From: a bacterium | GTDB taxonomy: Archaea > Thermoplasmatota > E2 > JACPAO01 > JAHFTW01 | Direction of reading: 5' to 3' | Assembly: GCA_040390065.1 (NCBI GenBank) | Contig: JAZJZE010000009.1 | Span: 378,930-442,929 of the forward strand | DNA: 64,000 nucleotides | Part shown: in pieces, positions 5,402 to 20,382 of the stretch | Numbering within the stretch: position 1 is the first letter of the stretch | Layout of the letters: every line of letters starts with the position of its first letter | Program-made: the position numbers and the translations under genes | The notes under the pieces: model-generated | Told to the model about the DNA's origin: nothing | What the model saw: the letters and a program-made list of their open reading frames with translations, nothing else | The model's database searches: none

Positions 5402-6820
5402 TCACCAGGCGTTGCCGCGAACGACGGACTCGTCCATCTCAGCAACGTGGAACGCGCCGAGAAGGTCCGTGTAGTACACGTATTTCCCCCTCGGGATGGC
5501 ATCGTACACGACCGGGTCCGTCGTGTAGCCCAGGTAGGGGATTGCCGTCCGGCCGTGCGGTTGCACGAAGCCCAACATGACAGGCTGCTGTGCCTTCGCC
5601 AAGGTCGACACATCGAGAACGATGAGGCCGGCGTGCATGTGCGGCACGAAGAGTGTGCCATTGCGGATCTCGGTGCGGTCCGTGGAGAACATGTACGTGC
5701 CCCCCTCCGCCGGGTGTAATCCCGGAAGCTGCCACGTCCCGATGAGCTTGGGCGCCACGAAATCGGTTGCATCGACGATCCACAGGATGCCCTGCCGCGG
5801 ATAGCTCGTCGGATATTCGGGGGCAACCACGGCGATGCGGTGGCCTTCGATGGCCGTGAACTCCACGTTGTGCACGTTGCCCGGCATGACGACGGTGAAG
5901 GCGTCCCATTTGCCGAGGAACTTGGGGTTGGCTGGGTCGGAGACATCGACGAAGTGCGCGCCTCCCCGCCAATGGGCGACGGCCATGAGGGGCTTGCCGC
6001 TGAGCGGGTCCGGGTCGACGGTGACGTCGTGGATGTTGTAGGAGGAGAAGCCGTCCTGGCGATTGAGGGCGGCCTGCATGCCTTCCGGACTCTGGTACGT
6101 CGCGACAGGCGTCACGTGCGGCGCGGGCGTCGCGTCGAACCGCACGATGTCAATCTGCGCAAGCGCATTGTTCGTGCCAAAAATGTACGTTGCACCCCCG
6201 ATGACCTCGATATCGAGACGATGCCAACCGTTTCCACCTGGCACACCCTGCACCGTGGAGCCAGGCGAGCGCCAGAACGTCGCCAGCGTCGGGTGGGACA
6301 AGTCCGCCAAGTCGACGACCTGGAGGCCGCCGTCGCCGATGTACGGCAAGCCGCCGCCGGCCGCGTCGTTCTCCGCCGTGACGAGAGGCATCGTCGGCAC
6401 GAAGGCCCAGCGACCGTCGGCACTGACCTCCACGTCATTCGTGTCCGCCGTGCCCGCATCGAAACGGCCGACCTCGCGAGGCAGCGCCGCATCGGCGATG
6501 TCCAAGATGACGAAGCCCGCCGACGGGTGGAACAACGACACGAATGCATAGTGGCTCCAGATCGTGAACTCCGACGGCGGCGACGTCGACCCCGAGCCGT
6601 TCATGGGGAGCGTGGACTCGAAGACGTCATGCATGTGCCACGACGCGCCAGGATGCGCGGCCGGGTCCGAGTGGTCGTGGTCGTTGACGAGGTTGGCCTC
6701 GAGGAACGCCAGGCCGGCGGCTTCGTCGTCGGCAGGGGGGGACGGCGGGGCTGGTGTCGTGCAGCCGGCAAGGACACAGAGCAGGAGCAGGATGGCGGCG
6801 ACGACGTGTTGGATGCCCAC
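5402..6820 (-). CDS. LVIVD-repeat beta-propeller lipoprotein
   Basis: LAGC lipobox; repeated FVILDIAD/LQVVDLAD/FVDVSDP/LIVLDVS motifs. Confidence 0.75.
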   Translation of the reverse strand: MGIQHVVAAILLLLCVLAGCTTPAPPSPPADDEAAGLAFLEANLVNDHDHSDPAAHPGASWHMHDVFESTLPMNGSGSTSPPSEFTIWSHYAFVSLFHPSAGFVILDIADAALPREVGRFDAGTADTNDVEVSADGRWAFVPTMPLVTAENDAAGGGLPYIGDGGLQVVDLADLSHPTLATFWRSPGSTVQGVPGGNGWHRLDIEVIGGATYIFGTNNALAQIDIVRFDATPAPHVTPVATYQSPEGMQAALNRQDGFSSYNIHDVTVDPDPLSGKPLMAVAHWRGGAHFVDVSDPANPKFLGKWDAFTVVMPGNVHNVEFTAIEGHRIAVVAPEYPTSYPRQGILWIVDATDFVAPKLIGTWQLPGLHPAEGGTYMFSTDRTEIRNGTLFVPHMHAGLIVLDVSTLAKAQQPVMLGFVQPHGRTAIPYLGYTTDPVVYDAIPRGKYVYYTDLLGAFHVAEMDESVVRGNAW

Positions 6821-6863
6821 GGCCGCCGGAGGCGAGGCGGGTGTCTTGAAGGAATCGCGCGCC

Positions 6864-7739
6864 CTAATTCCCCTTGAAGTTCGCGACCCTCTTCTCGACG
6901 TACGCGGCGATGCCTTCCTTGGCATCCTTGGATCCAAAGAGTTCAGCCTGCAATTCGCGCTCCAAGGCCAAGCCGTACTCCAACGGAATCTCGGCACCGG
7001 ACTGCACGGCGCGCTTGATGCGGCCGGCCGCCATGGCCGCCTTGTTCGGGGTACTGAACTGGCCCGCGTAGTCGAGGATTGCCTGGCGGAAATCCGCAGC
7101 ACTTCCCGGGTAGATGTCCGTCACGATGCCGAGGTTCTTCGCATCCTCGAAACTGATGTTGTTGCCCGTCACCATGAGCTCGATGGCCTTGGGCTTGCCA
7201 ACGAGGCGAGCCAGGCGCTGCGTGCCCCCGGTACCGGCCAGCACACCCAAGTTGATCTCCGGCAGCCCGACCTTGCCCGCATCCTTGCGCGCGATTCGCA
7301 AATCCGCCGCCATGGCAATCTCCAAACCACCGCCGACTGCGTGGCCATTCAAGGCCGCGATGACCAACTTCGGCGTCTGCTCGAGGCGGCTCAACGTCTC
7401 GTTCGCATGCAAACAGAAGAAATACTTGTAGCCAGGAGTGACCTTGTTCAACATCTGGATGCTGGCCCCCGCCGAGAAGAACTTCTCGCCGTGCCCAATG
7501 AGGACGATGACGTGCACATTGTCATCGAAGCGCGCCTTCAGCACAGCCTCGTCGATGTCCCGCATCATCTCATGCGTGTACGTGTTCGGCCCCGACGCGC
7601 CCTCCTTGAGCGGCGCACCAGCCGAGTCGCTTGCCAACTCGATGACCGCGATGCCATTCGGCGTCACGCCATAGTTCACCAAACGGTTCGCCATCGGCGA
7701 GAGCTTCAAGGCAGTCTGGGCGGGCGCATTCTGGGCCAT
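6864..7739 (-). CDS. Enoyl-CoA hydratase/crotonase family protein, BoxC-like subgroup
   Basis: FSAGA, ALNGHAVGGGLEIA, GLPEINLGVLAGTGGTQRL; KYFFCLHANET resembles BoxC as I recall it. Confidence 0.85.
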   Translation of the reverse strand: MAQNAPAQTALKLSPMANRLVNYGVTPNGIAVIELASDSAGAPLKEGASGPNTYTHEMMRDIDEAVLKARFDDNVHVIVLIGHGEKFFSAGASIQMLNKVTPGYKYFFCLHANETLSRLEQTPKLVIAALNGHAVGGGLEIAMAADLRIARKDAGKVGLPEINLGVLAGTGGTQRLARLVGKPKAIELMVTGNNISFEDAKNLGIVTDIYPGSAADFRQAILDYAGQFSTPNKAAMAAGRIKRAVQSGAEIPLEYGLALERELQAELFGSKDAKEGIAAYVEKRVANFKGN

Positions 7740-7839
7740 ACCACGCCCAGGAACGCCCCGTTCTTCAAGCCTTGGCCATGAGCCCCACTCCCACGAACAA
7801 GCCGGCGCACCCTTTATACGCCAAGGCAAGTCGGCCACA

Positions 7840-8169
7840 ATGACCGGCAACGGCTGGCACGCAGCCCTCCCCCTGACGGACGTGCCCAACGGCCGACCGC
7901 ACGAAGCCACCATCGCCGGCGTCAGCGTCCTCATCATCCGCCAAGGCAACGACGTCTACGCGACCACCCTCCACTGCCCCCACAAATTCGGCAACCTCGC
8001 CGAAGGCACCCTCGCCGGCCGTCTGCTGACCTGCCCCCAACACACGGCCACCTTCGACCTCGCCACCGGCCGACCCCGCCCGGGCGAAGAATGGGCCGGC
8101 AACCTCACCACATACGCATGCCGCGTCCGCGAAGGCCTCGTCGAAGTCCAACTCCCAGCCCTCGCCTGA
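7840..8169 (+). CDS. Rieske 2Fe-2S ferredoxin
   Basis: CPH...CPQH...FDLATG; CCTTTATA box about 25 nt upstream. Confidence 0.9.
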   Translation: MTGNGWHAALPLTDVPNGRPHEATIAGVSVLIIRQGNDVYATTLHCPHKFGNLAEGTLAGRLLTCPQHTATFDLATGRPRPGEEWAGNLTTYACRVREGLVEVQLPALA

Positions 8170-8175
8170 ACCAGC

Positions 8176-8958
8176 CTAAATCGAATTCAGACGCCCGCCA
8201 TCCACCGGCATCACGATACCACGTACGAACGACGCAGCCGGCGAACAAAGGAACGCTACCGCGGCACCAATCTCCTCCGGGCGCCCCAACCGACCCTCGG
8301 GCTGCGCATCGATCCAACCCTGCCGCACCTGCGCCACCGACTTCCCCGTCCGCTTCGACGTCGCGTCACTCAGCTCGCTCAAACGCTCCGTGTCGGTGTA
8401 CCCCGGCAGAATGCAATTCACCGTGATCCCCGGCGGCAACTCCTTACTGAGCGTCTTCGACCAAGACGCCATGCTCGCCCGCATCGCATTGCCAATGCCA
8501 AGACCGACAATCGGCTCCCGCACCGACGTCGACAAAATGCTCACGATACGACCATACCCCGCCGCCTTCATCCCCGGCACACAAATCTGCGCCAACAGAT
8601 GACTCGCCAACTGGATACGCCCATACGCCTTCAACAAATCCGCCTCCGACACCTCCAACAACGGCAACGACGGCGGCCCCCCCTGATTGTTCACGAGGAT
8701 GTGCACCGGATGCTGCCGCACATGCGCCTCCACCTTGACACGCAACCCCACCCGGTCCTCCAAATCACAGGGCAAGACATGCACATGGCTGGCCCCAGCA
8801 GCCAACACCTCCTTCGCCGCATCGCGCAACTCGCCCTCGCGCCGCGCCAGCAACGTCACAATCGCACCGAGACGCCCCAGCTCGACCGCCGCGGCACGCC
8901 CAAGCCCCGCCGACGCCCCGCAAACAAGCGCATGCCGACCCTTCAAAGAAAGATCCAC
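8176..8958 (-). CDS. SDR family oxidoreductase, possibly a late step of the aminomuconate/oxalocrotonate pathway
   Basis: GTG start; ALVCGASAGLG, LVNNQGGPP, TVNCILPGYTDT, VDGG. Confidence 0.85.
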   Translation of the reverse strand: MDLSLKGRHALVCGASAGLGRAAAVELGRLGAIVTLLARREGELRDAAKEVLAAGASHVHVLPCDLEDRVGLRVKVEAHVRQHPVHILVNNQGGPPSLPLLEVSEADLLKAYGRIQLASHLLAQICVPGMKAAGYGRIVSILSTSVREPIVGLGIGNAMRASMASWSKTLSKELPPGITVNCILPGYTDTERLSELSDATSKRTGKSVAQVRQGWIDAQPEGRLGRPEEIGAAVAFLCSPAASFVRGIVMPVDGGRLNSI

Positions 8959-8980
8959 GCCGCCCCCACGCCGCGGCCAC

Positions 8981-9163
8981 CTAAGACGCTTGGCCCGACC
9001 AAGGACCCGGCAAACCCACCCACCCCCCACGCTCCTCCCAGAACAAGAACGCCTCCTCGACCACCTCATGCAACGCCTGACGCGGATGCAAACGATGGCG
9101 CGCGATGAGATCACGAAGATAGGCGGGAATTTCGATGGTGGTGGAATCCGTGGTGCGGACCAT
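8981..9163 (-). CDS. Small ribbon-helix-helix/CopG-like DNA-binding protein
   Basis: STTIEIPAYLRDLIARHR...ALHEVVEEA beta-helix-helix pattern, 60 aa. Confidence 0.5.
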   Translation of the reverse strand: MVRTTDSTTIEIPAYLRDLIARHRLHPRQALHEVVEEAFLFWEERGGWVGLPGPWSGQAS

Positions 9164-9173
9164 GGCATAGGCA

Positions 9174-9201
9174 CCGCGCGGTTCCTATAGGAGCCTCGCG
9201 G
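9174..9201. promoter_or_regulatory. 28-bp imperfect palindrome centred on TCCTATAGGA, candidate operator over the promoter of the RHH-like gene
   Basis: ccgcgcggt TCCTATAGGA gcctcgcgg, TATA about 25 nt upstream of ATG 9163. Confidence 0.45.
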
Positions 9202-9249
9202 CGGGGGAACCGAAATCGCACAGCGGTTGGTGGCGCGGCCAGGCGCCGG

Positions 9250-9975
9250 CTATGGGATAAGCACGGCCCGCACCGGGCTGGCGTCGGCGCCTTCCAGCCG
9301 TAGGGGCAAGGCGATCAGGGTGTATGTTCCGGGCTTGACGTGGGCCAGGACGAGGCCTTCGAGGTTGACCATGCCGCGGGCGAAGAGGCGTTTGTGGGCT
9401 TCGAGGCCCTTGGAGGCGAAGAGGTCGGTGGAGGGTGTGTCCAACCCTACCAGGATGCAGCCGGCGTCGGCGAGGTGGTCGATGAGTTTTGGGTCGGGGG
9501 CGGCGAAGTCTTCGTTCCATTCGGTGGGGTCGGGGAATGTGCCGGTTTTGAGGAGGACGCGTGGCGTCGTGATGGGGGATGTGAGGTGAGCCGGGAGGAT
9601 GCGCTTGCCCCTTGCAGTCGTGGTCTCGATGACTTGGCAGGGTCCATAGTATGCCGTCAGGGGCATGGTGGCTGCGTCCGGGCCGTCGGTGGCGTAGTGG
9701 CGGTGGGCGTCGGTGTGGGCTCCGACGTGGAAGGAGGTGTGCATGCTGCCGATGTCGATGCCGTCTTTGTGCACGTCGGATGACTTCTCCATCTTGTAGG
9801 GGATGTCGCCGGGCCAGTTCTTGATTGCGTCGTTGATGGGGGGGGAGATGTCGATGAAGCGGACGAGCTCCTCTTTGGGCATGCCTGGCAGTCCCTTGTC
9901 GGCGGCGGCGCGGTCGGCGGCTCGGTCCGCGGCGCGGGCGGCGCTTTGGACGTCGCGCCAGGAGCCGGACTTCAT
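9250..9975 (-). CDS. kynB: Kynurenine formamidase (cyclase family)
   Basis: IDISPP, WPGD, HVGAHTDA (HxGxHxD), LVGLDTPSTD, NLEGL, GADASPVRAVL; ATGA overlap with upstream gene. Confidence 0.85.
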   Translation of the reverse strand: MKSGSWRDVQSAARAADRAADRAAADKGLPGMPKEELVRFIDISPPINDAIKNWPGDIPYKMEKSSDVHKDGIDIGSMHTSFHVGAHTDAHRHYATDGPDAATMPLTAYYGPCQVIETTTARGKRILPAHLTSPITTPRVLLKTGTFPDPTEWNEDFAAPDPKLIDHLADAGCILVGLDTPSTDLFASKGLEAHKRLFARGMVNLEGLVLAHVKPGTYTLIALPLRLEGADASPVRAVLIP

Positions 9976-11684
9976 GGGTGCGCCTTGGTTGGCATCTTGG
10001 CGACGACTTTGAGTTCCACGGCGATGGGGCCAGGGAGGGCTTGCACTTCAACTGTCGTGCGCGCTGGCTGGATGTTGCCGAAGTACTCATTGTAGACGGT
10101 GTTGAAGTCGGCGAAGTCGCGTTTCATGTCGATGAGGAAGGCGCTGACGTCGAAGACGTCTTCGAGGCTGGCTCCGGATTCTTGGAGGATGGTCTTGATG
10201 TTCTCGATGCATTGGCGGGTCTGCGCCTTGACGTCGTAGGCGAGGCGTTTGCCGTGTGCGTCGTGGACGGGGCCGCCGGTCGTCGCATTGGTTTTCGGGT
10301 GGCGGGGACCGATGCCGGCCAGGTACAGGAGGTCGCCGACGCGGCGGGCGTGGGCGTAGGCGGCGTAGGGTTTGGGGGCTTTGCTCGTCGCCACGACGCC
10401 TGACTTGTCAACAGATGGAACAGATGCACTAGATGACGAAATCTGTTTCTTCTCTTTCATCTGTTGACCCGTAGGGCGGGCAGCGGCCGTTTCCTGCAGC
10501 AAGGGCGAGCCGCCCCGCGGCCCTTCCGTCTTCGATGGCATGCGGCCTTCCCACTTGTCGCCCTCCTCCATGGTGAGGACGTTGAGTTGCGTTGCGCCGC
10601 CCGCGGAGCCGGAGGAGAGGACGTTGCGGTCGCCGCCGAAGTATTCGGCGTCGTCTTCGTCGAACTCCTTGTCGGCCGTGGCCTTCAAAGTCGGAGTGAG
10701 ACCGACGACGGCTGCGCCCGTCCCGTAGATGGGCTCGTAGGCGAACACGTTGCCGTCGTAGTGGTTGCTGGCGCCCATCACGGCGGACAGCCACCAGATG
10801 GCCTTCATCTTCTGGTCGCCGTTGGCTTGACCGGAGAATTCGCGGGCGAGTTGGCTCGCGTCCTCGAGGCGACCCTTGCCGAGGAATTCCAGGTACTTGC
10901 GGTTCCACTCGTCGTCCTTGAGGCTATGGATGCGGTCCTTCGCGAAGGGAATGATATCCGTGTGCATGCGGTTGCTGAGGGCCGTTACCGCAATTGCCAC
11001 GACGCGCTTGCCGGATGCTTGGACGGCGTCGCGGGCGGCCTTGCCGAGGACAATTGTCTCGGCGCGGTCGGCGTACATGTTGCACGACACGATCGAGGCC
11101 GCAATTTCATTCTTTGGCGACAATAGTTTGAGGGCCACGACGGAGCCGGTGTCGATGGGAAAACCGTGGTAGTCCACGGTGCGCATCTCCAGGCCGCGCT
11201 TCTCGCCGTGCTCGACGTACGACTTGCCAAAGGCTGGGTCCATGCGGAGCTTGTACGGAATGGAGCCGAGTTCATGCCATTCGGGGTCGACGTGGTTCCA
11301 CTCCGGCGCCGGCCGCGCTTGGACTTGGTGGCCGATGACCGAGAGCCACTGCGTCGAGTACAGCAAGAGGAGGTCGGGCTTGAGGCGCTTGATCTCGGCG
11401 CGCACGGACTCATAGGCGTCGCGGACGCGTTGGTACGCCGGATTCGCTTCGGGGATGAGGTAGGGGTGCGGAAGGCCAGGGACGATGAAGGCGGCGATGA
11501 GGCCTGGGCGCCCGTTCACCGACTGCGCCGCGGATGGCGCTGAGACCGCGGCGGCGTTCGGTTTCATCTGTTTCACGGGTTGACTCGACGAGCCACGGGC
11601 CGAACGAACCAAGGAACGCACAGACCCCGCTGAACGCGTGTTCTGTGGTTTCTGTAAAGTCTGCGGTTTGGTTTTGCGGGTCAT
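9972..11684 (-). CDS. Fusion: 2-aminophenol 1,6-dioxygenase alpha subunit (AmnA-like) plus RidA-family 2-aminomuconate deaminase
   Basis: AFIVPG...KPDLLLLYSTQW...HVDPEWHELGSIPY (AmnA-like, no metal His); C-terminal AYAHARRVGDLLYLAG...QPARTTVEV...VELKVVA (RidA). Confidence 0.85.
   Translation of the reverse strand: MTRKTKPQTLQKPQNTRSAGSVRSLVRSARGSSSQPVKQMKPNAAAVSAPSAAQSVNGRPGLIAAFIVPGLPHPYLIPEANPAYQRVRDAYESVRAEIKRLKPDLLLLYSTQWLSVIGHQVQARPAPEWNHVDPEWHELGSIPYKLRMDPAFGKSYVEHGEKRGLEMRTVDYHGFPIDTGSVVALKLLSPKNEIAASIVSCNMYADRAETIVLGKAARDAVQASGKRVVAIAVTALSNRMHTDIIPFAKDRIHSLKDDEWNRKYLEFLGKGRLEDASQLAREFSGQANGDQKMKAIWWLSAVMGASNHYDGNVFAYEPIYGTGAAVVGLTPTLKATADKEFDEDDAEYFGGDRNVLSSGSAGGATQLNVLTMEEGDKWEGRMPSKTEGPRGGSPLLQETAAARPTGQQMKEKKQISSSSASVPSVDKSGVVATSKAPKPYAAYAHARRVGDLLYLAGIGPRHPKTNATTGGPVHDAHGKRLAYDVKAQTRQCIENIKTILQESGASLEDVFDVSAFLIDMKRDFADFNTVYNEYFGNIQPARTTVEVQALPGPIAVELKVVAKMPTKAHP
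10407..10468. repeat. Palindromic element family 1, in-frame copy in AmnA-RidA linker
   Basis: GTCAACAGATG...CATCTGTTGAC perfect 11-bp terminal inverted repeat. Confidence 0.85.
11514..11584. repeat. Palindromic element family 1, degenerate in-frame copy near the AmnA-like N-terminus
   Basis: Right arm TCGGTTTCATCTGTTTCACGGGTTGAC; peptide QPVKQMKP...SVN parallels other copies. Confidence 0.55.
11599..11684. repeat. Palindromic element family 2, copy forming the first 29 codons of the AmnA-RidA gene
   Basis: gccgaacgaacc...ttggttttgcgggtcat aligns with 18987-19069. Confidence 0.7.
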
Positions 11685-11939
11685 TTACGCTTCCCCCCGG
11701 CGAGGTGAGCGCGCAGCGATGGCAACCAGGCAACCCGCGGCCGCGCCCGCCACGAGTGCCGTGAGTACGGCCAGCAACGTCCCGCCACCGCCCTCGTACC
11801 AGCCTGCGGAGCGGCCACTGACTTCGCGTGCCACCGACCAAGCGAAGAGAGCCCCGTAGCTTGCGACGCCAACCACGATTCCAGCCACGATTGCACGTCT
11901 TGCAGCCCGGTTCGTTCGCGAGGCGGCTGGGACGCCCAT
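11685..11939 (-). CDS. Small two-TM membrane protein intercalated between amnB and amnA-like genes
   Basis: 84 aa hydrophobic ORF flush with both neighbours (0 nt gaps). Confidence 0.55.
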   Translation of the reverse strand: MGVPAASRTNRAARRAIVAGIVVGVASYGALFAWSVAREVSGRSAGWYEGGGGTLLAVLTALVAGAAAGCLVAIAARSPRRGEA

Positions 11940-12914
11940 CTACGTCCGCCCCCTCGGCGTGACTCGCCGCGTCTCCGGATTAGGGTCCCACTCCACGACG
12001 GCGTTGCCGGTGCCGATGACGGTGCCGTAGCCGTGCAGTTCCGCCGGGTACTTTGGGTACGAAAGTGCGGAAAGTAACCAGGACAGGCAACCGGCGTCGG
12101 CCTCGCTCGTCGCGTCGTCGATGAGGTCCGGCATCTCGTCGAACAGCTGCGCCGCGCGTCCTTCGCGCATGAGGCGGATGGCGTGCATGTCCCACAGGTA
12201 TTGTCCGTGGTGGTAGATGCGTTCCTGGCTCATGTCTTCGGGGAGGGCGCCTTCGCGCGTGAAGTGCCGATGGCTGATGGAATTGCTCGCGAGGAGGAGG
12301 GCGCGGCGTCCCGACTTCTCCACGGCGCGGCGCGTCGCTTCGCCGAGGGCCTTCTGCTGGGCTTGTCCGACGTCGTTGCTGTAATATTTATACGAACCAT
12401 TGGATGAAATGCCGACGATGGGTTTGTCCCACTTGGGATTCACCATGTGGCACGCCGCGATGGTGCCGTAGTCGACGCGGTATGCCGGGTTGCGCATCAT
12501 CTTCGTGACGAGGCCGGCGCCGCGGGCTTCCTTCTCGATGACCTCGGCGAGCTCGACGTCGACGTCGATGTCGCACTTGAAGCGGAAGAGGTTCGGGAAG
12601 ATCGGGTCGACGCTCAGGTTCGAGAAGTGCTTCACGCCGAGGAAGTGGTGGCCGACTTGGGTTCTCCAATGCGGCGAGTGCACGATGATGACATCGTATT
12701 CGCGCATCTTGCGGTCGAGGCTTGCCCGCAGCCGTTCGTAGCCCCACCGAACCGGCTCCCAGCCGCACTCGGCCGTCGCCTCGTTCTCTGGCGGGTTGTC
12801 GGCGTAGACGAGGTGGGGCGGATGCGGCGAGAGGCAACCGGCCACGATGCGGCCTTGCTGCGCCGTCGGCTGGGGGCGATTTTGGGCTTTGCCACGCGGG
12901 GCTTGCCGTGCCAT
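11940..12914 (-). CDS. amnB: 2-aminophenol 1,6-dioxygenase beta (catalytic) subunit
   Basis: PHPPHLVYADNPPENE..GWE..RWGYER, HSPHW, SVDPIFPNLFR, RVDYGT, SISHRH, SEADAG: LigB-fold Fe(II) ligands and catalytic residues intact. Confidence 0.88.
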   Translation of the reverse strand: MARQAPRGKAQNRPQPTAQQGRIVAGCLSPHPPHLVYADNPPENEATAECGWEPVRWGYERLRASLDRKMREYDVIIVHSPHWRTQVGHHFLGVKHFSNLSVDPIFPNLFRFKCDIDVDVELAEVIEKEARGAGLVTKMMRNPAYRVDYGTIAACHMVNPKWDKPIVGISSNGSYKYYSNDVGQAQQKALGEATRRAVEKSGRRALLLASNSISHRHFTREGALPEDMSQERIYHHGQYLWDMHAIRLMREGRAAQLFDEMPDLIDDATSEADAGCLSWLLSALSYPKYPAELHGYGTVIGTGNAVVEWDPNPETRRVTPRGRT

Positions 12915-12990
12915 CGCCGAAGACGACCGCCGCTTGCCGTATCACTGTTTTGGACCCGGCCTGGCCCACGCTTACGTGGCCGGCTGGCGC

Positions 12991-13203
12991 CTACACGACG
13001 TGCAGGGCTTCGTTGGCATCCGCTTGACCGATGGCGCCCATCGACGGGGCATGCCGGCAGCGCGGGCACGGCACGCCGACGCTCTGCGTCTTCGCCCAAG
13101 CGACGAACACGCCGGTCCCGTGGCACGTTGGACACCCATGCGGTGGCTCGAAGATGATGCCAAGGGCGGTATCCCCGATACGCCAACTCCTTTGGGGTTC
13201 CAT
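12991..13203 (-). CDS. Small zinc-finger protein CxxCxGTGVF-x12-CPRC (start uncertain)
   Basis: CPTCHGTGVFVAWAKTQSVGVPCPRC; paralog at 23042-23233. Confidence 0.5.
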   Translation of the reverse strand: MEPQRSWRIGDTALGIIFEPPHGCPTCHGTGVFVAWAKTQSVGVPCPRCRHAPSMGAIGQADANEALHVV

Positions 13204-13304
13204 GGCCCCACCTTCCGAGGCGCGCGCCCATAAGGCGTGGGTTTGCCAACGCCGCCCACACCCGCCAGGTCCCAGGAGGCAACCTTGAAGGGGGAGCCCC
13301 ATGC

Positions 13305-13613
13305 GTGGCCGTGGACGAAGCCGGGTTGGCGGAGGCCCAAGCCGACTTGGTGGCCTGGGGTCTCCTCGACGACGGCGTCCCCGTCCAGGTGTCACGCCGT
13401 GGCCGAGCCGCCCTGGCACGTGCCGCCGCCTTTCTTCGCGAAGAAGAAGTCCAGGGCCGACCGCGCGAAGGGCATCCGCTCTTGCTGACCGCCGAGATCG
13501 CAATCGCGGCGGCCTTGCCCGAGGGGGCATCCGCGACCGTGGAGCACCACCGCCTGCTGGCCGCCGTGGAGCTCGCGTCCCTTCCAGAGGGTGTGCGCGG
13601 GATGTTCACCTAG
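13305..13613 (+). CDS. Hypothetical protein
   Basis: 102 aa helical-looking ORF; CTTGAAG box upstream. Confidence 0.55.
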   Translation: MAVDEAGLAEAQADLVAWGLLDDGVPVQVSRRGRAALARAAAFLREEEVQGRPREGHPLLLTAEIAIAAALPEGASATVEHHRLLAAVELASLPEGVRGMFT

Positions 13614-14068
13614 CGGCTCTTGGCCGTGACGACGGGGCGCCCCGCCGTCGGCGTCGGGGGCGCCTGAGCCTTCAGGTAGGCGACGATCTGGTTCAGTTCC
13701 TTGTCGAATGTCGCCTGCGGCATTGCCGTCCCGTTGAGGATGGTCGAGCCTTGACGCGTCAGGCTGGCCATGAAGACGGCTTCCTGGATCTCCTGCTCGG
13801 TTGCGCCGTTGAGGCGAGCCGCTTCGGTGTGGAAGAGCACGCAGTAGTGGCACGGGATCTGGGCGGAGACGCCGAGGCCGATTAGTTCCTTGACCTTCCC
13901 GGAGAGCGCCGTCTTGTCCGACAGCTGGAAGTCGCGCAGGCCGGCCCACCAGAGCCGGAATTCGTTGGGCTGCAGGACGTTGGCAAAGGATGGCACCATG
14001 CCGAAGGTCTTCGTCAGTTCCGTCTTGAGGTCATTGGGCAGGCTTGTCGGAGGGTTGGATGTGGGCAT
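13610..14068 (-). CDS. Carboxymuconolactone decarboxylase/AhpD family protein
   Basis: TFGMVPSF...KVKELIGLGVSAQIPCHYCVLFH...GATEQEIQEA. Confidence 0.85.
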   Translation of the reverse strand: MPTSNPPTSLPNDLKTELTKTFGMVPSFANVLQPNEFRLWWAGLRDFQLSDKTALSGKVKELIGLGVSAQIPCHYCVLFHTEAARLNGATEQEIQEAVFMASLTRQGSTILNGTAMPQATFDKELNQIVAYLKAQAPPTPTAGRPVVTAKSR

Positions 14069-14227
14069 GTTGGGCACCCGACCAGGGGCATTCCCGTCAC
14101 CCATATGAGGGGGAGGGCCGAGGCAGGCACCGCCGACCCGGTTGCTTGCTCCTGGACCAGGATCATCGCCGGTTCCTTGCAGCTCACGCGTGGCCCGCGC
14201 CTGGAATCGCCCGCCAGCTCTCGCCGG

Positions 14228-15430
14228 TCACGCCTCTTCTGCCTTCGAGCGGCGCGCTCTTGCGCCCAGGCCTGCCAAGAGCACGGCTGCGACGGCCGCG
14301 GGGATTGGCAACGCGGGCGTCCCATTCGAAGCGGCCGGCGCCACCTGCGCTGCTGCCGTGCCGTCCGGGGCCCACGTCAGGTTGTGCAACAGCAACGTCG
14401 TCGCCCCGCCGATGGCCACGGGTTGGCCGTGCGCGTCGGCGTCGATGTCGAGGAACATCCTGTCGTGCCATTTCATGGCGCCCGCCGGACCGGACAGGTG
14501 CACCGCGCACGACGCGGGCAACGTGGAGTACGCGCACGTGGCGTCGCCTGGGATGCCGCGCCCACTCACGTACAAGGTGACGCGCAGGTCGACTGAACCC
14601 GCGGTCGGCTGCGTCGCATTGCCGACACTTGCCAGGCCGATGACGAGGTCTGCCGTTCCGCCGACATGCAAGTCACGCGGCGCATCCCAGTAGTCGCTCA
14701 GGACCTTGCTGGCAAACACTGGAGCCGGCCCGACGGGACACGAAGCGGAGGGCAGCGCAGTGAGGGCGATGGCCAGGCAGCGCTGGGAGCCCTGTCCGAC
14801 GTGGAATTCGATGTCCCCCGATGGGGGCAAAAGCGAGAGCGCGGAGGCCGTCACGTTGGCGCGCACGACAGGGAGCCCCCAGGTGCCGGCCAGTTCGATG
14901 CGCGATGGGTCTGAGCCGCCAAACACCATGGAAGGCGTGAACACGGCGGCGATCGTGGGGAACCGAACGGCGACCGAGGTCTCGAGGAAGGGCACCGCAG
15001 CGCCCGGACCGGCCAAGGCGACGTCGCAGATGTCCGCGACATCGCACAACCGTTTCCCCGTCGCGACGAGGGTCTGGCCATGCGTGACGTCGACCTGGAC
15101 CTCGAAGACGCCGGGATGAAGGAGCGGGGAGAAGCGCAGGAACGCCGTCCCTTGGCCGGTGGCGTTCAGGATGAGGTCCGTGCCGTTGCCATTGAACATG
15201 TGGGGGGGCGCCCCTCCCTGCCCGGCGGCTGCCACGGCGAATCCCTGGCCGCACGAGCCGGAGTCCGCCGCCGGCTCCGCGATAAGGTTGTAGGGGCCGC
15301 AGGCGAAGTTCGCTTGGTCGCCCCGGTCCATGTAGAGCACCAGTTTGTCGCCTTGGGTGACGGCGCCGGCCTGCGGCGTCACGGTTGCCCCGAGAACCAG
15401 GAAGGCCATGACGACCGCCAGCCGCATCAT
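14228..15430 (-). CDS. Secreted surface protein with C-terminal TM anchor/sorting signal
   Basis: MMRLAVVMAFLVLGATVTPQAGA signal; C-terminal TPALPIPAAVAAVLLAGLGARARR; ATGA overlap with ALDH stop. Confidence 0.7.
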   Translation of the reverse strand: MMRLAVVMAFLVLGATVTPQAGAVTQGDKLVLYMDRGDQANFACGPYNLIAEPAADSGSCGQGFAVAAAGQGGAPPHMFNGNGTDLILNATGQGTAFLRFSPLLHPGVFEVQVDVTHGQTLVATGKRLCDVADICDVALAGPGAAVPFLETSVAVRFPTIAAVFTPSMVFGGSDPSRIELAGTWGLPVVRANVTASALSLLPPSGDIEFHVGQGSQRCLAIALTALPSASCPVGPAPVFASKVLSDYWDAPRDLHVGGTADLVIGLASVGNATQPTAGSVDLRVTLYVSGRGIPGDATCAYSTLPASCAVHLSGPAGAMKWHDRMFLDIDADAHGQPVAIGGATTLLLHNLTWAPDGTAAAQVAPAASNGTPALPIPAAVAAVLLAGLGARARRSKAEEA

Positions 15431-17046
15431 GGCGCACCGCCCTTCACGCAGATGTTGCGCGGTTCCGAGAAGAAGTCCAGTGAGTGGCGGCCGCCTTCGC
15501 GCCCGACGCCCGATTCCTTCATGCCCCCAAAGGGCACCCGCAAGTCGCGCACAAGCCAACAGTTGACCCAGACCATGCCGGTGTCGAGAGCCTCGGCAAC
15601 TCGTTTGGCTTTTGCGGCGTCGGTCGTCCAGACGCTGGCGGCTAGACCATACCGCACGTCGTTGGCGAGCCGGACGGCCTCGGCCTCGTCCGCGAAGGCC
15701 TGGATCGTGACGACGGGTCCGAAGATTTCCTCCTGCACGCAGCGCGACGACTGCGCCAGACCGGTCACGATCGTCGGTTCCAGAAACGCCCCGTCCGAGA
15801 ACGGCGTCGGCAACTTGGGGCGGGATCCACCGAGCGGGATTCGTCCGCCGTCTGCCTTTGCGATCGTGATGTAGGCCTCGACCTTGGCGCGGTGCTCCTT
15901 GCTCACAAGGCTGCCGAGGTCCGTCGCCGGGTCCGCCGGGTCGCCGACCTTCATCTGCTGGGTTCGGGCGACGAGGCGCTTCGTGAACTCCTTCTCGGCC
16001 TTCGCCTCGACGAGGATACGCGAGCCGCACAAGCAGATTTGCCCGGTGTTCGTAAACGCGGAACGCACGACGCCTTCGACGGTTGCGTCCATGTCGCAGT
16101 CGGCAAAGACGATGGTCGGATTCTTGCCGCCGAGTTCGAGGCTGACCTTCTTGAGGTGGGGCGCCGCCGATTGCGCGACGCGGCGACCCGTCGCCGTTCC
16201 ACCGGTGAAGGAGATGGCCCGCACCTCAGGATGCTCGACAAGCGCTTGGCCGGCTTCGGGGCCGAGACCGTGGACGACGTTGAAGACGCCGGGCGGCAGA
16301 CCGGCTTCCAGCAGGACCTTGCCGAGAGCGTCGGCCGACAGCGGCGTCAATTCCGAGGGCTTGGCCACGACCGTGTTGCCCATGGCAAGGGCCGGTGCCG
16401 CCTTCCAGGACAGGAGATAGATGGGCAGGTTCCACGGCGTGATGAGCCCAACGACGCCGACGGGGGCGCGCACCGTGTAGTTGAGATGGCCCGGCATCGG
16501 ATGCTCGATGCGGCCTTCAGCGACCGCGAACTCGGCGAAGAAACGCAGATTCGAAATGGCACGCGGAACGTCGAGGCTGCGCGCGAGCTTGACGGGCTTG
16601 CCGGTGTCCCGCGATTCGAGCGACGCGAACTCGTCCATGCGCGACTCGATGAGGTCGGCGGCCTTCGTCAAAATGGCGCAGCGCTTGGCGAGTGGCGTCG
16701 CGGACCAAGCGGGGAGTGCGGTTTTCGCGGCAGCAACGGCTGCGGCGACGTCGGACGTGCCACTGCGAGGGATGGTGGCGATTTCCTTGCTCGTGGCGGG
16801 ATTGATGACGGAGATTGTGCGGCCGTCGGCTGCGGGTCTTGATGTGCCGGCGATGAGGTTGCCGACGTCGACGACCGCCCCATCAACAGATGCAGCAGGT
16901 GCCGACCGGAACGAAGCGGTGGAATCGGTTGTATCCGTTGCATCGGTTGACCGTTGGGCGTCGCGCCTGGCGAACCCGTACGCGCGCGCCAAGTCCCTCT
17001 GGGCGACCTTGCGGTCCTTCTCGAGCCAATCGAAGCCGTCGGTCAT
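15427..17046 (-). CDS. amnC: 2-aminomuconate/2-hydroxymuconate semialdehyde dehydrogenase-type ALDH
   Basis: ITPWNLP, KPSELTP, FTGGTATG, LELGGKN, GQICLCGSR, EEIFGP, WVNCWLVRDLRVPFGGMKESG. Confidence 0.8.
   Translation of the reverse strand: MTDGFDWLEKDRKVAQRDLARAYGFARRDAQRSTDATDTTDSTASFRSAPAASVDGAVVDVGNLIAGTSRPAADGRTISVINPATSKEIATIPRSGTSDVAAAVAAAKTALPAWSATPLAKRCAILTKAADLIESRMDEFASLESRDTGKPVKLARSLDVPRAISNLRFFAEFAVAEGRIEHPMPGHLNYTVRAPVGVVGLITPWNLPIYLLSWKAAPALAMGNTVVAKPSELTPLSADALGKVLLEAGLPPGVFNVVHGLGPEAGQALVEHPEVRAISFTGGTATGRRVAQSAAPHLKKVSLELGGKNPTIVFADCDMDATVEGVVRSAFTNTGQICLCGSRILVEAKAEKEFTKRLVARTQQMKVGDPADPATDLGSLVSKEHRAKVEAYITIAKADGGRIPLGGSRPKLPTPFSDGAFLEPTIVTGLAQSSRCVQEEIFGPVVTIQAFADEAEAVRLANDVRYGLAASVWTTDAAKAKRVAEALDTGMVWVNCWLVRDLRVPFGGMKESGVGREGGRHSLDFFSEPRNICVKGGAP
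16882..16951. repeat. Palindromic element family 1, in-frame copy in ALDH N-terminal extension
   Basis: ATCAACAGATGCAGCAG...GTTGCATCGGTTGAC; peptide STDATDTTDSTASFRSAPAASVD. Confidence 0.75.
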
Positions 17047-17819
17047 GTGGGGCCTGCCGCAGGAGCCGAGCCAGCAGGGAAACTGAGGAAGAACTCGGCG
17101 AAGAAAATGAGGACGGCAAGACCGCCGGCGACGAGAGCAATCCAGTTTCGCGCGTGGTAGGAACCACCCTGCAGGCGCATTGTTGCCTCGGCGACGCCCC
17201 ACACGCCGCCGAAGGCCGACAGGAGCCAGGCGATGGCAACCGGTACGACCAACCAGGTGGGCGGGGCGTTTGGCAAGGCCGGCGCAAGAGCCGCCAGCAC
17301 GGTGGTGGCAAGGGCCGCAAAGGCAACGCCCACAAGCCACGCTGCCACGGGCTCCGGCACGGGCGCCGTCACGGATGGGGCTGGCCTCCGCCGGCGGGCG
17401 CGACCTCCCGACCACCAAAGTACCGCGGCCCCTGCGCCGAACCCCAGGCCGAAGGCGACGGGGAATTCCACGGCGTCCGCCCTGGGCCGGCCACGTGCGG
17501 CAACGACGATGAGGACCGTGAAGAGCAGGCCGACGCAAGCGACGACGATGGCCGCAATCTGTAGGCCATGAAGGGGGCCGGTGCCCTTGGGCAGTGGGGG
17601 CGACCGCTCGACCATTACGCGGTTGACGACGGGCCGAGGTTTGGCCGTTGCCGCAAGACGCCAACACACTGCGGCGAGGCCGAGGAAAATGACCTCCATG
17701 GCGAGGGCGTCGAGCCAACGGTTCGTGGCGGTCGGGCGGACAAGAGCCTCATACGCGGCCAGTTGAGCCAGGGCGACGAAGGCGACGGCCACGATTCTCC
17801 AGGTTCTTGCCGGCGACAT
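17043..17819 (-). CDS. Multi-pass membrane protein
   Basis: About 7 hydrophobic segments; TGATG and ATGA overlaps with both neighbours. Confidence 0.6.
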   Translation of the reverse strand: MSPARTWRIVAVAFVALAQLAAYEALVRPTATNRWLDALAMEVIFLGLAAVCWRLAATAKPRPVVNRVMVERSPPLPKGTGPLHGLQIAAIVVACVGLLFTVLIVVAARGRPRADAVEFPVAFGLGFGAGAAVLWWSGGRARRRRPAPSVTAPVPEPVAAWLVGVAFAALATTVLAALAPALPNAPPTWLVVPVAIAWLLSAFGGVWGVAEATMRLQGGSYHARNWIALVAGGLAVLIFFAEFFLSFPAGSAPAAGPT

Positions 17820-19069
17820 CACGGCCCCCACCCCGGCGCCGGCCATTCGGGTGCCCACTCGTTCCAGTCGTAGTACCAGCGGTCGTCGTTGGGGTCCCAG
17901 TCGTCCCACGTCGGAATCGCTTCCAACTTCTTGGCGTACTTGGTCGGCACGATGCCGGGGACGAGGAACGCCTTCTGCCGGTTCAATTTATAGGGATTCC
18001 TCAATTCAAATCCGAGGACGCCGAGGATGGCCCGTGCGACGTACCAAGTGGCCCTCGGGTTCCAGCCGTGCGCGATCTTGACGACGACGCCGAGGCCGTC
18101 GGGGTAATCGGGGTGCACGATGGACAATCCGAGGAGGCCGTCCGCGCCTTCCTTCGCGATGACCTTGCCCTTGCAGGCCTTCAGAATCGTGGAGTCGAGG
18201 CGGTTGAAGCCGCCGACGAGGTCGGGATTCTTCGTCATGGCCTCCCAGATCCAGTCCTCGTCGCGTTCCTGGGCGAGGCGGGCATAGAGGAGGGCGAGTT
18301 CGTTGACCGTGTTCGACGCGGTCGGCAATCCGCAGCCGTCGCGGGCGACGCGGGCTGGCTGCCAATCCTTGCCGAGGAAGCGGCGCACTTCGTCGAGGTA
18401 GGCCTGGAACCACGGGTGCTGCGGCAGGAGGTAGCCGATGCGCGGCCAGCCCTTCTCTTTGCAACCCCGAATCAATGCGGCGTGCTCGCCGGAACACGTG
18501 TGATACCAACGCCGGGGCCGGCGAACCTGTCGTCCGAACTGGACGAGCGGGACATCCAGGGGGGCTTGCATGAGGCCCCACTCCGTCGGCATGAGGATGC
18601 TCTGCGCCGCCGCGACGTGCTCGGTGTCGCCGTTGTGGCTGCTGCACGAGATGGCCTTCTGCTCCCACGACAGCCCCGCGAGTTCCTTGGCGAAGACCTT
18701 CATGACGAGCGGCTTCATCATCGAGCGCCCATAGCACAGGACGTTGCCGCCGAAGGAATGGATGATTTTTCCCGGTTTTCCGTCCTTGCCCCCAACGGCC
18801 CACGCCACGGCGCCGTGGATTGTTGTTTCCGACACGCCGTATCTTCGGTAGTCGACGAGCGGCTCCCATTCCACGTCTCTGCCGGTTGGGATGCCTTTGA
18901 CTTGTTCTCCCAGCGGCGACGTCGGATACATTTCGCGGCCGGGGCCGGTTTGGAGATGGGACTTTTGGGGCTGGCCGTTTTTCGGCGCCGAACGAACCAC
19001 TGAACGCACTGAACGTCGCGTCTGGTTCAGTGAGCTCAGTGGCTTCAGTGGCTTGGTTTGGCGGGTCAT
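17819..19069 (-). CDS. Divergent L-asparaginase II (AnsA-like) family amidohydrolase
   Basis: GRSMMKP, SSHNG, HTCSGEH, DGCGLP, AKEGADG; motif changes relative to the canonical paralog at 58492-59478. Confidence 0.8.
   Translation of the reverse strand: MTRQTKPLKPLSSLNQTRRSVRSVVRSAPKNGQPQKSHLQTGPGREMYPTSPLGEQVKGIPTGRDVEWEPLVDYRRYGVSETTIHGAVAWAVGGKDGKPGKIIHSFGGNVLCYGRSMMKPLVMKVFAKELAGLSWEQKAISCSSHNGDTEHVAAAQSILMPTEWGLMQAPLDVPLVQFGRQVRRPRRWYHTCSGEHAALIRGCKEKGWPRIGYLLPQHPWFQAYLDEVRRFLGKDWQPARVARDGCGLPTASNTVNELALLYARLAQERDEDWIWEAMTKNPDLVGGFNRLDSTILKACKGKVIAKEGADGLLGLSIVHPDYPDGLGVVVKIAHGWNPRATWYVARAILGVLGFELRNPYKLNRQKAFLVPGIVPTKYAKKLEAIPTWDDWDPNDDRWYYDWNEWAPEWPAPGWGP
18987..19069. repeat. Palindromic element family 2, copy forming the first 28 codons of the AnsA-like gene
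   Basis: GAACCACTGAACGCACTGAAC...GTTCAGTGAGCTCAGTGGCTTCAGTGG, 9-nt period. Confidence 0.8.
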
Positions 19070-20382
19070 GCCGGCTCCGTCCTTGCTGCCACTGTCGGCC
19101 GCACCTTCTCCATGAACGCCTCCATGTTCCGTACAACCCGCGCGGAATCATGGTTGAAGAAATCGAACCACAGCATCAACCGGTCCTCAGGATGATACCG
19201 TGCGCGAATCTGCTCGGCGACCTGCGCCGCCGTCCCAATCACGGCGTTGTCGGCAGCCGTCTCCGTCTTCTTCGGGTCCAGCGTTCCCTCCAAAGCGGTC
19301 CAGTACGCATGCAGCGCCTTCTTCGCCTCCGTCTGCGCCGCCGCTGTCCGCCGCGCCGGAGTCAAGCCGGGCTCCTCGTTGATGAAAACGAGCACCGTGC
19401 GCGGCATGTAGCTGCGCTTCCATTTGCCGCCATCCTTGTGGAACGCCTTGGCCATGCGTTCGTGCGTCGCGTCGATGACGGGTGTTGGCGTGATGCTCAG
19501 GTTCGCGACGTGCGCGGGCAGGAAACGGTTCACGAGTTCGTGCACGGCGGGGTCGTGGCTGCCGACGACGAGCTGCAGAAGGTCGCGGCGGAATTCCTGG
19601 GGGACAATCTTGAGGTGCTCGAAGACGAAGCGCTTCGGCAGAGTGATTTCGGGGTTCGCCGACGCTGGCTTTTCAACAGATGAAACAGAAACAACAGATG
19701 AAGTGCCTGACATCTGTTCCATCTGTTCAATCTGTTGACCCGTCGTCTGGGCGGCGGCCAGGGCCTTCTGCCAATCCTCCTCGGACCGGAAATCCTTCCG
19801 CGTCACCTTGCGAAGGGGAATGTCCGCGCCGCAAATCGTTTCGCCCGCAAGCAGTCGAGCGAAGATCTCGGCCGCTTCGTCGAAGACCTTGCCTTTCCAC
19901 AGCCCAAACGGCAACGCCTTCTCGAGTGGCGTTTGCGGGTCGATGCCGTAGGCGCGGTTCTGGAAGTCGAAGCGGCCTGCGCTGAAGCCGACGTGCAGAC
20001 GGCGGCGTTCGTTCGGGTCCAACCCGTGCAGGCTGAGGAAGTAGGCAATGCGCTCGGCGTGGGCGACGGGGCCACCAGACTGCAGGAGGTTGAGGACCGC
20101 GGAGCCGACGTCGATGCGTTTGGTGCGCCGAAAGACTTCGTGCGCGGTCTGCATGATGTCGACGTTGAGCCCGACTTCGCCCTGCCAATGCGGCACGACG
20201 GGCTTGCGGTTGCGCTTCTGCACTTCCGTGGAAAGGTGCGCCTCGGCGACCCAGGCGACGCCGAAGCCCAAGCGGTCGGCGGCCTCGACTTGTTGGAAGA
20301 AGTGCGCAAGCATGGTGCGCTCGTCCGGCGTCACGCCGTCGACGGGCGTTTGCGAGATGGAGAAGAAGACGTCGAACTCCAT
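19066..20382 (-). CDS. Luciferase-like (LLM) flavin-dependent monooxygenase
   Basis: QVEAADRLGFGVAWVAEAH, TKRIDVGSAV, AERIA, RLHVGFSAG, IGTAAQVAEQI. Confidence 0.85.
   Translation of the reverse strand: MEFDVFFSISQTPVDGVTPDERTMLAHFFQQVEAADRLGFGVAWVAEAHLSTEVQKRNRKPVVPHWQGEVGLNVDIMQTAHEVFRRTKRIDVGSAVLNLLQSGGPVAHAERIAYFLSLHGLDPNERRRLHVGFSAGRFDFQNRAYGIDPQTPLEKALPFGLWKGKVFDEAAEIFARLLAGETICGADIPLRKVTRKDFRSEEDWQKALAAAQTTGQQIEQMEQMSGTSSVVSVSSVEKPASANPEITLPKRFVFEHLKIVPQEFRRDLLQLVVGSHDPAVHELVNRFLPAHVANLSITPTPVIDATHERMAKAFHKDGGKWKRSYMPRTVLVFINEEPGLTPARRTAAAQTEAKKALHAYWTALEGTLDPKKTETAADNAVIGTAAQVAEQIRARYHPEDRLMLWFDFFNHDSARVVRNMEAFMEKVRPTVAARTEPA
19672..19739. repeat. Palindromic element family 1, in-frame copy inside the LLM gene
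   Basis: TCAACAGATGAAACAGAAACAACAGATG...CATCTGTTCCATCTGTTCAATCTGTTGAC; peptide QQIEQMEQMSGTSSVVSVSSVE. Confidence 0.85.

Follow-up and report, generated by a model that had tools for sequence, protein, structure and literature searches.

The window analysed here is a stretch of 64,000 nucleotides from an archaeon of the Thermoplasmatota (assembly GCA_040390065.1, contig JAZJZE010000009.1, positions 378,930 to 442,929). It carries a cluster of minus-strand genes (8176-20382) that probably encodes a catabolic route from tryptophan to 4-oxalocrotonate independent of kynureninase. The cluster brings together a luciferase-like monooxygenase (LLM), an Asparaginase_II-like hydrolase (AsnII), an aldehyde dehydrogenase (ALDH), the two subunits of a predicted 2-aminophenol dioxygenase (AmnB and AmnA, the latter fused to a RidA domain), a KynB-like arylformamidase and an atypical short-chain dehydrogenase/reductase (SDR). 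It is common, almost unchanged, to many bacteria, and most likely degrades tryptophan via 2-aminophenol. In a more detailed account, to which we give an even chance of being right, this is a second widespread tryptophan route. The LLM would perform a Baeyer-Villiger oxidation of kynurenine, a repurposed class 3 asparaginase would convert the product to aspartate and 2-aminophenol, the natural substrate of AmnAB, and kynureninase would be replaced in whole lineages. At the level of the pathway the claim is well supported by comparative genomics, and the two key reactions are those that we infer.

The two ends of the route are identified by homology. Tryptophan 2,3-dioxygenase (TDO), encoded on another contig in this genome and within the cluster in many relatives, would together with KynB make kynurenine. 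At the other end, where the homology is strong, AmnAB would open the ring of 2-aminophenol to give 2-aminomuconate semialdehyde, the ALDH, of the 2-aminomuconate 6-semialdehyde dehydrogenase (AMSDH) type, would oxidise this to 2-aminomuconate, and the deaminase-type RidA domain would convert the latter to 4-oxalocrotonate. This leaves only two enzymes, a flavin-dependent oxygenase and an acyl hydrolase of the beta-aspartyl type, and we therefore infer that they join kynurenine to 2-aminophenol. Kynurenine is beta-(2-aminobenzoyl)alanine, so that insertion of oxygen on the aryl side of its carbonyl gives 2-aminophenyl beta-aspartate, an asparagine look-alike. Baeyer-Villiger activity is known for some members of the LLM family, namely the diketocamphane monooxygenases. 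In the proposed scheme, the LLM is a kynurenine (or N-formylkynurenine) Baeyer-Villiger oxygenase that would use reduced flavin and O2 to place an oxygen atom between the carbonyl of kynurenine and the 2-aminophenyl ring, with migration of the aryl group. The resulting beta-aspartyl ester of 2-aminophenol may shift to N4-(2-hydroxyphenyl)asparagine, which likewise resembles asparagine. AsnII, as the putative hydrolase of this ester or of the amide, would act as a serine hydrolase that forms a beta-aspartyl-enzyme, releasing 2-aminophenol and then aspartate.

To study the neighbourhood of the LLM, we scanned one genome per species, which gave 522 LLM relatives, and kept the best 80 loci. Since these loci are defined by the LLM, the gene counts are conditional on its presence. 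Among the 47 loci that extend 7 kb or more downstream of the LLM, the ALDH is found in 46, AsnII in 45, AmnB in 42, AmnA in 41, the SDR in 39, and RidA and KynB in 36 each; AsnII, ALDH, AmnB, AmnA and KynB occur all together in 35. Of the 67 loci that extend at least 1.5 kb downstream, 62 hold AsnII, and in 51 it directly follows the LLM. TDO was detected by tblastn in 35 of the 80 loci. Unsupervised clustering of the open reading frames (ORFs) of these 80 loci recovered it as one more recurrent neighbour (39 ORFs, 36 loci) and revealed no further widely conserved one, the minor neighbours being an acyl-CoA dehydrogenase, seen in 10 archaeal loci, and a cupin, seen in 6. The genes usually run TDO-SDR-LLM-AsnII-ALDH-AmnB-AmnA/RidA-KynB, and in the bacterial loci the SDR lies directly upstream of the LLM. 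Four other Thermoplasmatota families, represented by six loci, share the segment SDR-LLM-AsnII-ALDH, and four of the six also have AmnB-AmnA-RidA. AsnII is missing from the LLM loci L023, L050, L053, L056, L071 and L074; in the five that were checked (all but L023), an AsnII-like gene 68-75% identical lies elsewhere in the genome. Hence, the LLM and AsnII are co-conserved with amnAB, the ALDH and kynB, and often with kynA (the TDO gene), across archaea and several bacterial phyla, as a preliminary description of this DNA had proposed.

The distribution of the LLM across genomes is complementary to that of kynureninase (genome lists were intersected by hand). Among 301 Thermoplasmatota genomes, 76 encode the LLM, concentrated in four families (9/9, 19/21, 5/8 and 41/42 genomes), 97 encode TDO, and 19 have a kynureninase-like gene (E<=1e-20), 3 of them above the curated cut-off. 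TDO is present in 75 of the 76 LLM genomes and kynureninase in a single one, and 11 of the 22 genomes with TDO and no LLM carry a kynureninase-like gene, in several cases adjoining TDO. The 151 Myxococcota genomes include 21 with the LLM, 32 with kynureninase and 64 with TDO, and LLM and kynureninase never occur together; the 64 TDO genomes comprise 20 with the LLM, 31 with kynureninase, none with both and 13 with neither. The 38 bacterial genomes reached through loci with a complete cluster encode TDO in 36 cases and kynureninase in none. The anti-correlation with kynU anticipated in the preliminary description therefore holds, the overlap being zero in Myxococcota, 1/76 in Thermoplasmatota and 0/38 in the bacterial cluster genomes.

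The other genes of the cluster follow the LLM. Matches to AsnII in Myxococcota are bimodal: exactly the 21 LLM genomes have one at 61-78% identity (in G446 it is a stretch of 122 residues, 61% identical, in a short open frame), and the remaining matches are paralogues at 27-33%, including second copies in three LLM genomes. AmnB is found in 20 of these 21 genomes and in 1 of the 130 others. Lineages in which the route would stand in place of kynureninase are the Thermoplasmatota (nearly all genomes of two species-rich families sampled), the Myxococcota, Planctomycetota, Bdellovibrionota and others. Separately, in Thermoplasmatota families that lack the LLM cluster, TDO is adjoined by a divergent gene of the kynureninase type (G123:C190, G093:C62, G046:C38, G118:C4 and G133:C23). 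These genes score 100-120 bits, well under the TIGR01814 cut-off of 246, and look like an archaeal kynureninase variant that is missed by the curated models.

The genome that contains the window is 89% complete, and absences were scored across all of it unless a contig is named. The searches that the preliminary description had suggested gave a kynA gene, on contig C17 and away from the cluster, no kynureninase (TIGR01814), and two Flavin_Reduct genes, on contigs C1 and C11, with none in the window. It had also reported that the window lacks four enzymes of the classical pathway. For kynureninase the absence extends to the genome, and for 2-amino-3-carboxymuconate 6-semialdehyde decarboxylase (ACMSD) it stands for the window, the single Amidohydro_2 match of the genome (C9:144462) lying outside. 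For kynurenine 3-monooxygenase (KMO) it can be stated at the level of the window's own contig, C9, where FAD_binding_3 has no match. For 3-hydroxyanthranilate dioxygenase (3-HAO), PF06052 has no match in the genome, a weak blank because the control was silent too.

The enzymes assigned to the ends of the route have close solved relatives. AmnB matches 3vsg_B, 8ihg_A and 7txy_B with E-values of 1e-111 to 1e-104, these being beta subunits of 2-aminophenol or 2-amino-5-chlorophenol 1,6-dioxygenases. It aligns with 3vsg_B over 290 residues and keeps those corresponding to His13, His62 and Glu251, which we take to be the iron ligands. This strong homology identifies AmnB as the predicted catalytic beta subunit of a 2-aminophenol 1,6-dioxygenase. 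The AmnA part of the fusion (residues 59-328 of the product of 9972-11684) matches the alpha subunit 7txy_A (8e-51). The best solved match of the RidA part is a 2-aminomuconate deaminase (6izh_A, 4e-24); this part scores 94 bits with PF01042 and 96.8 bits with TIGR00004, below the latter's cut-off of 106. The seven best Protein Data Bank (PDB) matches of the ALDH are all AMSDHs (E 2e-149), and the four best of KynB are all kynurenine formamidases (E 6e-41). The archaeal ALDHs (here at 16849-17046, and in L003, L005, L011, L013 and L014) also have a conserved N-terminal extension of ~65 residues that starts with M(T/S)(D/E)GF(D/G)WL(E/A)KDR and is absent from the solved AMSDHs.

The position of KynB in the sequence of reactions bears on the best-placed alternative, in which the same enzymes act in another order: the LLM would oxidise N-formylkynurenine, AsnII would hydrolyse the resulting 2-formamidophenyl beta-aspartate, a stable ester, and KynB would deformylate 2-formamidophenol last. 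The cluster usually ends with KynB, which is present in only 36/47 loci, and its score under the arylformamidase cut-off (189 versus 223 bits) allows for a shifted substrate; a formylated amine would, we presume, also block the O-to-N acyl shift and autoxidation. However, gene order is a poor guide to reaction order, and among solved structures KynB is closest to true kynurenine formamidases. We regard this order as unlikely.

In the proposed route, the oxygenation would fall to the LLM, a member of a large family that is divergent from other LLM enzymes and very conserved within itself. More than 4800 proteins match it at E<=0.001; the best 120 listed are 57-81% identical and labelled Thermoplasmatota, Planctomycetota or Myxococcales, and the Protein Atlas clusters carry only the names 'hypothetical' or 'LLM class flavin-dependent oxidoreductase'. 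A profile search against solved structures returned only luciferase 8cbb, as a marginal match (E 5e-4). The AlphaFold model (pLDDT 78.5) has the TIM barrel of the LLM family, and a Foldseek search found 147 PDB structures that match it at E<=0.001; all 34 of the 147 that were listed are LLM-family proteins, and the target TM-scores reach 0.78. They include an Agrobacterium monooxygenase, RslO1, luciferases, 3,6-diketocamphane monooxygenase, RutA, SsuD/MsuD, Mer and FGD, at 12-17% identity. The predicted structure thus confirms the LLM as a divergent member of the group C flavin monooxygenase superfamily. The barrel is shared with the type II Baeyer-Villiger monooxygenases (BVMOs; 2,5- and 3,6-diketocamphane monooxygenases) and with luciferase, 4uwm, 5aec, 1luc and 8cbb matching at E 1e-11 to 1e-9 with 13-17% identity, but other LLM reaction types match equally well: 4uwm ranks 15th (14% identity), and luciferases, RslO1, RutA and SsuD score similarly. 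As a side observation, a eukaryotic gene model of 1501 residues (P0122; EukProt ANDGO_01838) joins a full-length LLM of this family (44% identity) to a class-I glutamine amidotransferase (GATase) and an ApbE flavin-transferase, and may be either a true fusion or the product of merging two gene models. A flavin-reductase domain at its C-terminus was considered and found no support (phmmer E 0.13; no Pfam match at E<=5).

AsnII belongs to the family of the Rhizobium etli class 3 asparaginases ReAIV and ReAV (E 1e-17 to 1e-24; PF06089; structures 7os3 and 8cly) and has no NCBIfam match. ReAV, according to PMC8602277, has two catalytic tandems (Ser48-Lys51 and Ser80-Lys263), works through an acyl-enzyme on Ser48 and holds zinc by Cys135, Lys138 and Cys189. 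In AsnII, S116, K119, S144 and K306 are invariant in 16/16 cluster-linked sequences and fall on the RSxxK, SH.. and K.GAD motifs of the two solved structures. Both Ser-Lys tandems being kept, the machinery for attack on a beta-aspartyl carbonyl is kept as well. The two zinc cysteines (C192 and C246) are invariant or nearly so among the 16 sequences, whereas the position of the zinc-ligand lysine, Lys138 of ReAV, is occupied by a glutamate (Glu195) in 15 of them and by glutamine in 1. The protein also differs from ReAV by ~40 extra conserved residues at each end and by its constant linkage to the LLM. The replacement of the zinc-ligand lysine marks these sequences as a distinct subfamily rather than canonical asparaginases; its members are 61-78% identical to one another and ~30% identical to canonical paralogues. 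A plain L-asparaginase role was considered for AsnII and set aside, as it misfits strictly LLM-linked orthologues that stay 61-78% identical across domains next to canonical paralogues at ~30%.

The nature of these two enzymes also bears on the next alternative, in which they replace classical ones: the LLM, as an analogue of KMO, would hydroxylate kynurenine at C3, AsnII, as an analogue of kynureninase, would cleave 3-hydroxykynurenine by hydrolysis, AmnAB would cleave 3-hydroxyanthranilate, and the ALDH and RidA would follow after a decarboxylation. The cluster genomes lack kynureninase, AmnAB and 3-HAO both cleave beside the hydroxyl-bearing carbon, and the ALDH finds its best matches in the 3-hydroxyanthranilate/2-nitrobenzoate branch. 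Yet hydrolases that work through a Ser-Lys acyl-enzyme are not known to cleave the C-C bond of kynurenine without pyridoxal phosphate, and to our knowledge aromatic hydroxylation is rare among LLM enzymes. Moreover, the cluster has no conserved decarboxylase of the ACMSD type, the genome's only Amidohydro_2 match lying outside the window, and the alignment of AmnB with solved 2-aminophenol dioxygenases spans 290 residues (E 1e-111). We find this replacement very improbable.

Least probable of all is that the LLM and AsnII handle another amide or ester (for example an oxidatively formed primary amide, or O-anthraniloyl-serine from alkyl migration), or that the cluster serves another 2-aminoaryl compound or a biosynthesis (such as that of a phenoxazinone or picolinate). 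In its favour, the LLM, AsnII and the SDR have no assigned function, TDO is absent from 45/80 loci, and picolinate forms by cyclisation of 2-aminomuconate semialdehyde, as phenoxazinones do by dimerisation of 2-aminophenol. Against it, TDO is encoded in 75/76, 36/38 and 20/21 of the cluster-bearing genomes and adjacent in 35 loci, the anthranilate or benzoylacetamide arising from alkyl migration or from oxidative decarboxylation would not feed AmnAB, the ALDH and deaminase point to catabolism, and no biosynthetic genes are conserved near the LLM loci.

Several observations weigh against the Baeyer-Villiger route through kynurenine and 2-aminophenol. The roles of its middle enzymes, the LLM and AsnII, are proposed in order to fill a gap. 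The fold of the LLM is about as near to luciferases as to hydroxylases, desulfonating enzymes, RutA and F420 reductases, so that it does not indicate the type of reaction. No flavin-reductase family is conserved among the neighbours in the 80 loci. AmnAB would cleave 3-hydroxyanthranilate alike, and its homology alone is therefore no proof that 2-aminophenol is the substrate. Two of the flanking enzymes score below curated cut-offs, the ALDH with TIGR03216 (2-hydroxymuconic semialdehyde dehydrogenase; 588.9 bits, cut-off 693) and KynB with TIGR03035 (189.4 bits, equivalog cut-off 223.05). KynB (36/47) and TDO (35/80) are often encoded outside the locus. One Thermoplasmatota genome, G243, has a kynureninase of full score (425 bits) in addition to the LLM and TDO, and is the only one seen with both routes. 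Naive exact tests of the two anti-correlations among TDO genomes give P values of ~3e-8 and ~8e-8, which overstate the case because the sampled genomes are kin.

The SDR adds a further difficulty, being among the most tightly linked genes and having neither the catalytic tyrosine nor an assigned step. In an alignment of 52 cluster-linked sequences, from the window and 51 loci, whose register against canonical SDRs was set by eye, a conserved N-x-x-R replaces Tyr-x3-Lys and the glycine-rich cofactor motif is kept. Its solved relatives are unnamed SDRs and indicate no function. The SDR may be the flavin reductase of the oxygenase, supplying reduced flavin to the LLM, or it may reduce a late intermediate.

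The features of the cluster are listed in the table below. Every informative ORF within 8176-20382 is on the minus strand, in a window with a G+C content of 63-70%. A look-up of sequencing runs containing this DNA listed no RNA run, and the single run listed is a DNA run that may itself be its source. The LLM, AsnII, ALDH, AmnB, AmnA-RidA, KynB-like and SDR genes were thus placed correctly in the preliminary description. They are transcribed here in the order LLM, AsnII, membrane protein, ALDH, secreted protein, carboxymuconolactone decarboxylase (CMD)/AhpD-family protein, AmnB, AmnA-RidA, KynB-like protein and SDR.

Table. Features of the cluster and its downstream neighbour (positions within the window)
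Feature	Position	Strand	Family matches and remarks
LLM	19066-20382	minus	438 aa; PF00296 42.7 bits (cut-off 27.9), N-terminal part only
AsnII (Asparaginase_II-like)	17819-19069	minus	PF06089 171 bits (cut-off 25)
Multi-pass membrane protein ORF	17043 to ~17846	minus	no Pfam match; between AsnII and ALDH
ALDH	15427-17046	minus	PF00171 588 bits; scanned as 15427-16848; likely start is the ATG at 17046
Secreted protein, 400 aa	14228-15430	minus	signal-like N-terminus, C-terminal hydrophobic anchor; no Pfam or NCBIfam match
CMD/AhpD-family protein	13610-14104	minus	PF02627 51.5 bits
AmnB	11940-12914	minus	PF02900
AmnA-RidA fusion	9972-11684	minus	PF02900 + PF01042; AmnA residues ~60-330, RidA ~425-565
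KynB-like cyclase-family arylformamidase	9250-9975	minus	PF04199
SDR	8176 to ~8958	minus	PF13561 + PF00106
Enoyl-CoA hydratase	6864-7937	minus	PF00378; after SDR, same strand

The conserved cluster carries three inserted genes that are specific to this lineage. The membrane protein has no tblastn match in the 80 LLM loci, the secreted protein was not found in the other LLM loci, and the CMD/AhpD gene occurs in 1/47 loci, being shared with locus L003 alone. Overlapping or abutting start and stop codons join AsnII, the membrane protein, the ALDH and the secreted protein, the stop of the membrane protein overlapping the ATG of the ALDH at 17046. The preliminary description had the LLM coupled to AsnII in the same way: the stop of the LLM does overlap an AsnII ATG as ATGA (position 19069), but the use of that ATG is uncertain. 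The first 47 codons of AsnII have a weak coding signal (G+C at third codon positions, GC3, of 0.66 versus 0.85 in the core), and conservation with its relatives starts near residue 42; the conserved core begins near 18931-18945. Also inserted in this lineage only are an 84-residue hydrophobic ORF (11685-11939) and ~700 bp without a clear reading frame (12915-13609). Downstream of the SDR, the enoyl-CoA hydratase gene is overlapped by the ORF of an LVIVD-repeat protein (5402-7102, minus strand) and may be part of a downstream dicarboxylate or acyl-CoA metabolism.

AsnII starts with a basic tag of ~45 residues that is specific to this lineage. AsnII (18929-19069) and AmnA (11505-11684) both open with nearly the same basic peptide, MTR(Q/K)TKP...SVRS(V/L)VRSA, with low GC3 in both tag stretches; the peptide is found nowhere else in a six-frame translation of this genome. 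In related archaeal loci (L004, L005, L006, L009 and L014), similar peptides precede AsnII, AmnA and AmnB, and are not found on the LLM, ALDH or KynB. The tag may be an assembly or targeting peptide; encapsulin shell proteins (PF04454), as a possible target, have no match in this genome. One bacterial protein of 736 residues, found on 3 contigs, has a LigB domain resembling AmnA and, after it, a domain that shares 75% identity with AsnII of the window. The fusion and the shared tags may reflect contact between the enzyme that would release 2-aminophenol and the one that consumes it; they fit this idea without proving it. A predicted complex of AmnB, AmnA (residues 55-335) and AsnII (48-416) scored 0.20 against a mark of 0.32, and weighs neither way. 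We also observed a repeat of ~95 nucleotides in three copies 61-81% alike, all within coding sequence: in the AmnA-RidA linker (10394-10488), in the N-terminal extension of the ALDH (16869-16971) and in a variable loop of the LLM (19659-19759). The first and third copies encode Ser/Val-rich segments of the 'SVxSV' type.

Parts of the cluster resemble known systems. The amn clusters of Pseudomonas sp. AP-3 and Burkholderia xenovorans LB400, and the cnb and nbz clusters, have homologous AmnB, AmnA, AmnC-type ALDH and RidA-type deaminase genes, acting in the same order from 2-aminophenol to 4-oxalocrotonate. In these systems, according to PMC3790839 and PMC6742747, the 2-aminophenol derives from nitrobenzene or enters as a pollutant. 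They go on with a 4-oxalocrotonate decarboxylase, a hydratase and an aldolase, genes that are not conserved here, whereas the present cluster adds TDO, KynB, the LLM, AsnII and the atypical SDR. The classical bacterial kynurenine pathway has the same entry (TDO and KynB) and the same exit (AMSDH-type ALDH and RidA-type deaminase); a bacterial 2-aminomuconate deaminase is described in the preprint 10.64898/2026.06.05.730449. In contrast to that pathway, the present route has no kynureninase, KMO, 3-HAO or ACMSD, its ring cleavage is assigned to the LigB-type AmnAB instead of the cupin 3-HAO, and its distribution is complementary to that of kynureninase.

The two proposed middle steps have parallels in other pathways. 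The 4-hydroxyacetophenone pathway of Pseudomonas fluorescens ACB consists of 4-hydroxyacetophenone monooxygenase (HAPMO), an aryl esterase, hydroquinone dioxygenase and a semialdehyde dehydrogenase. It follows the same logic, from an aryl ketone through a Baeyer-Villiger aryl ester to a phenol, extradiol-type cleavage and an aldehyde dehydrogenase. HAPMO is, however, a type I BVMO (FAD/NADPH-dependent and single-component), and the enzymes of that pathway are not homologous to the present ones. In the Rut pyrimidine pathway, an LLM (RutA) is followed by a hydrolase (RutB, an amidohydrolase) and a RidA-family protein (RutC), as here, with RutF as flavin reductase; its hydrolase is of another family and its substrate is different, whereas the present RidA domain is fused to AmnA and nearest to 2-aminomuconate deaminase.

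In full-text searches of openly available main texts, no paper was found that ties kynurenine to an LLM or Baeyer-Villiger step, to an asparaginase-type hydrolase or to 2-aminophenol, and a term search of PMC10470539 for such a link gave zero occurrences. Overall, the cluster is a credible, widespread and undescribed variant of the kynurenine pathway that would feed the known 2-aminophenol meta-cleavage pathway. If true, central metabolism would gain a further route for one of the proteinogenic amino acids, and two enzyme activities would be new: the Baeyer-Villiger oxygenation of kynurenine, by a very divergent family of LLM enzymes, and the hydrolysis of an N4-aryl-asparagine or aryl beta-aspartate, by a member of the class 3 asparaginase family. 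It would account for the common occurrence in uncultured microbes of 2-aminophenol dioxygenase genes, which are known mainly from the degradation of pollutants. Thousands of annotations as 'LLM class flavin-dependent oxidoreductase' or 'asparaginase' would be corrected, and metabolic models would change for the lineages that have TDO but lack kynureninase.

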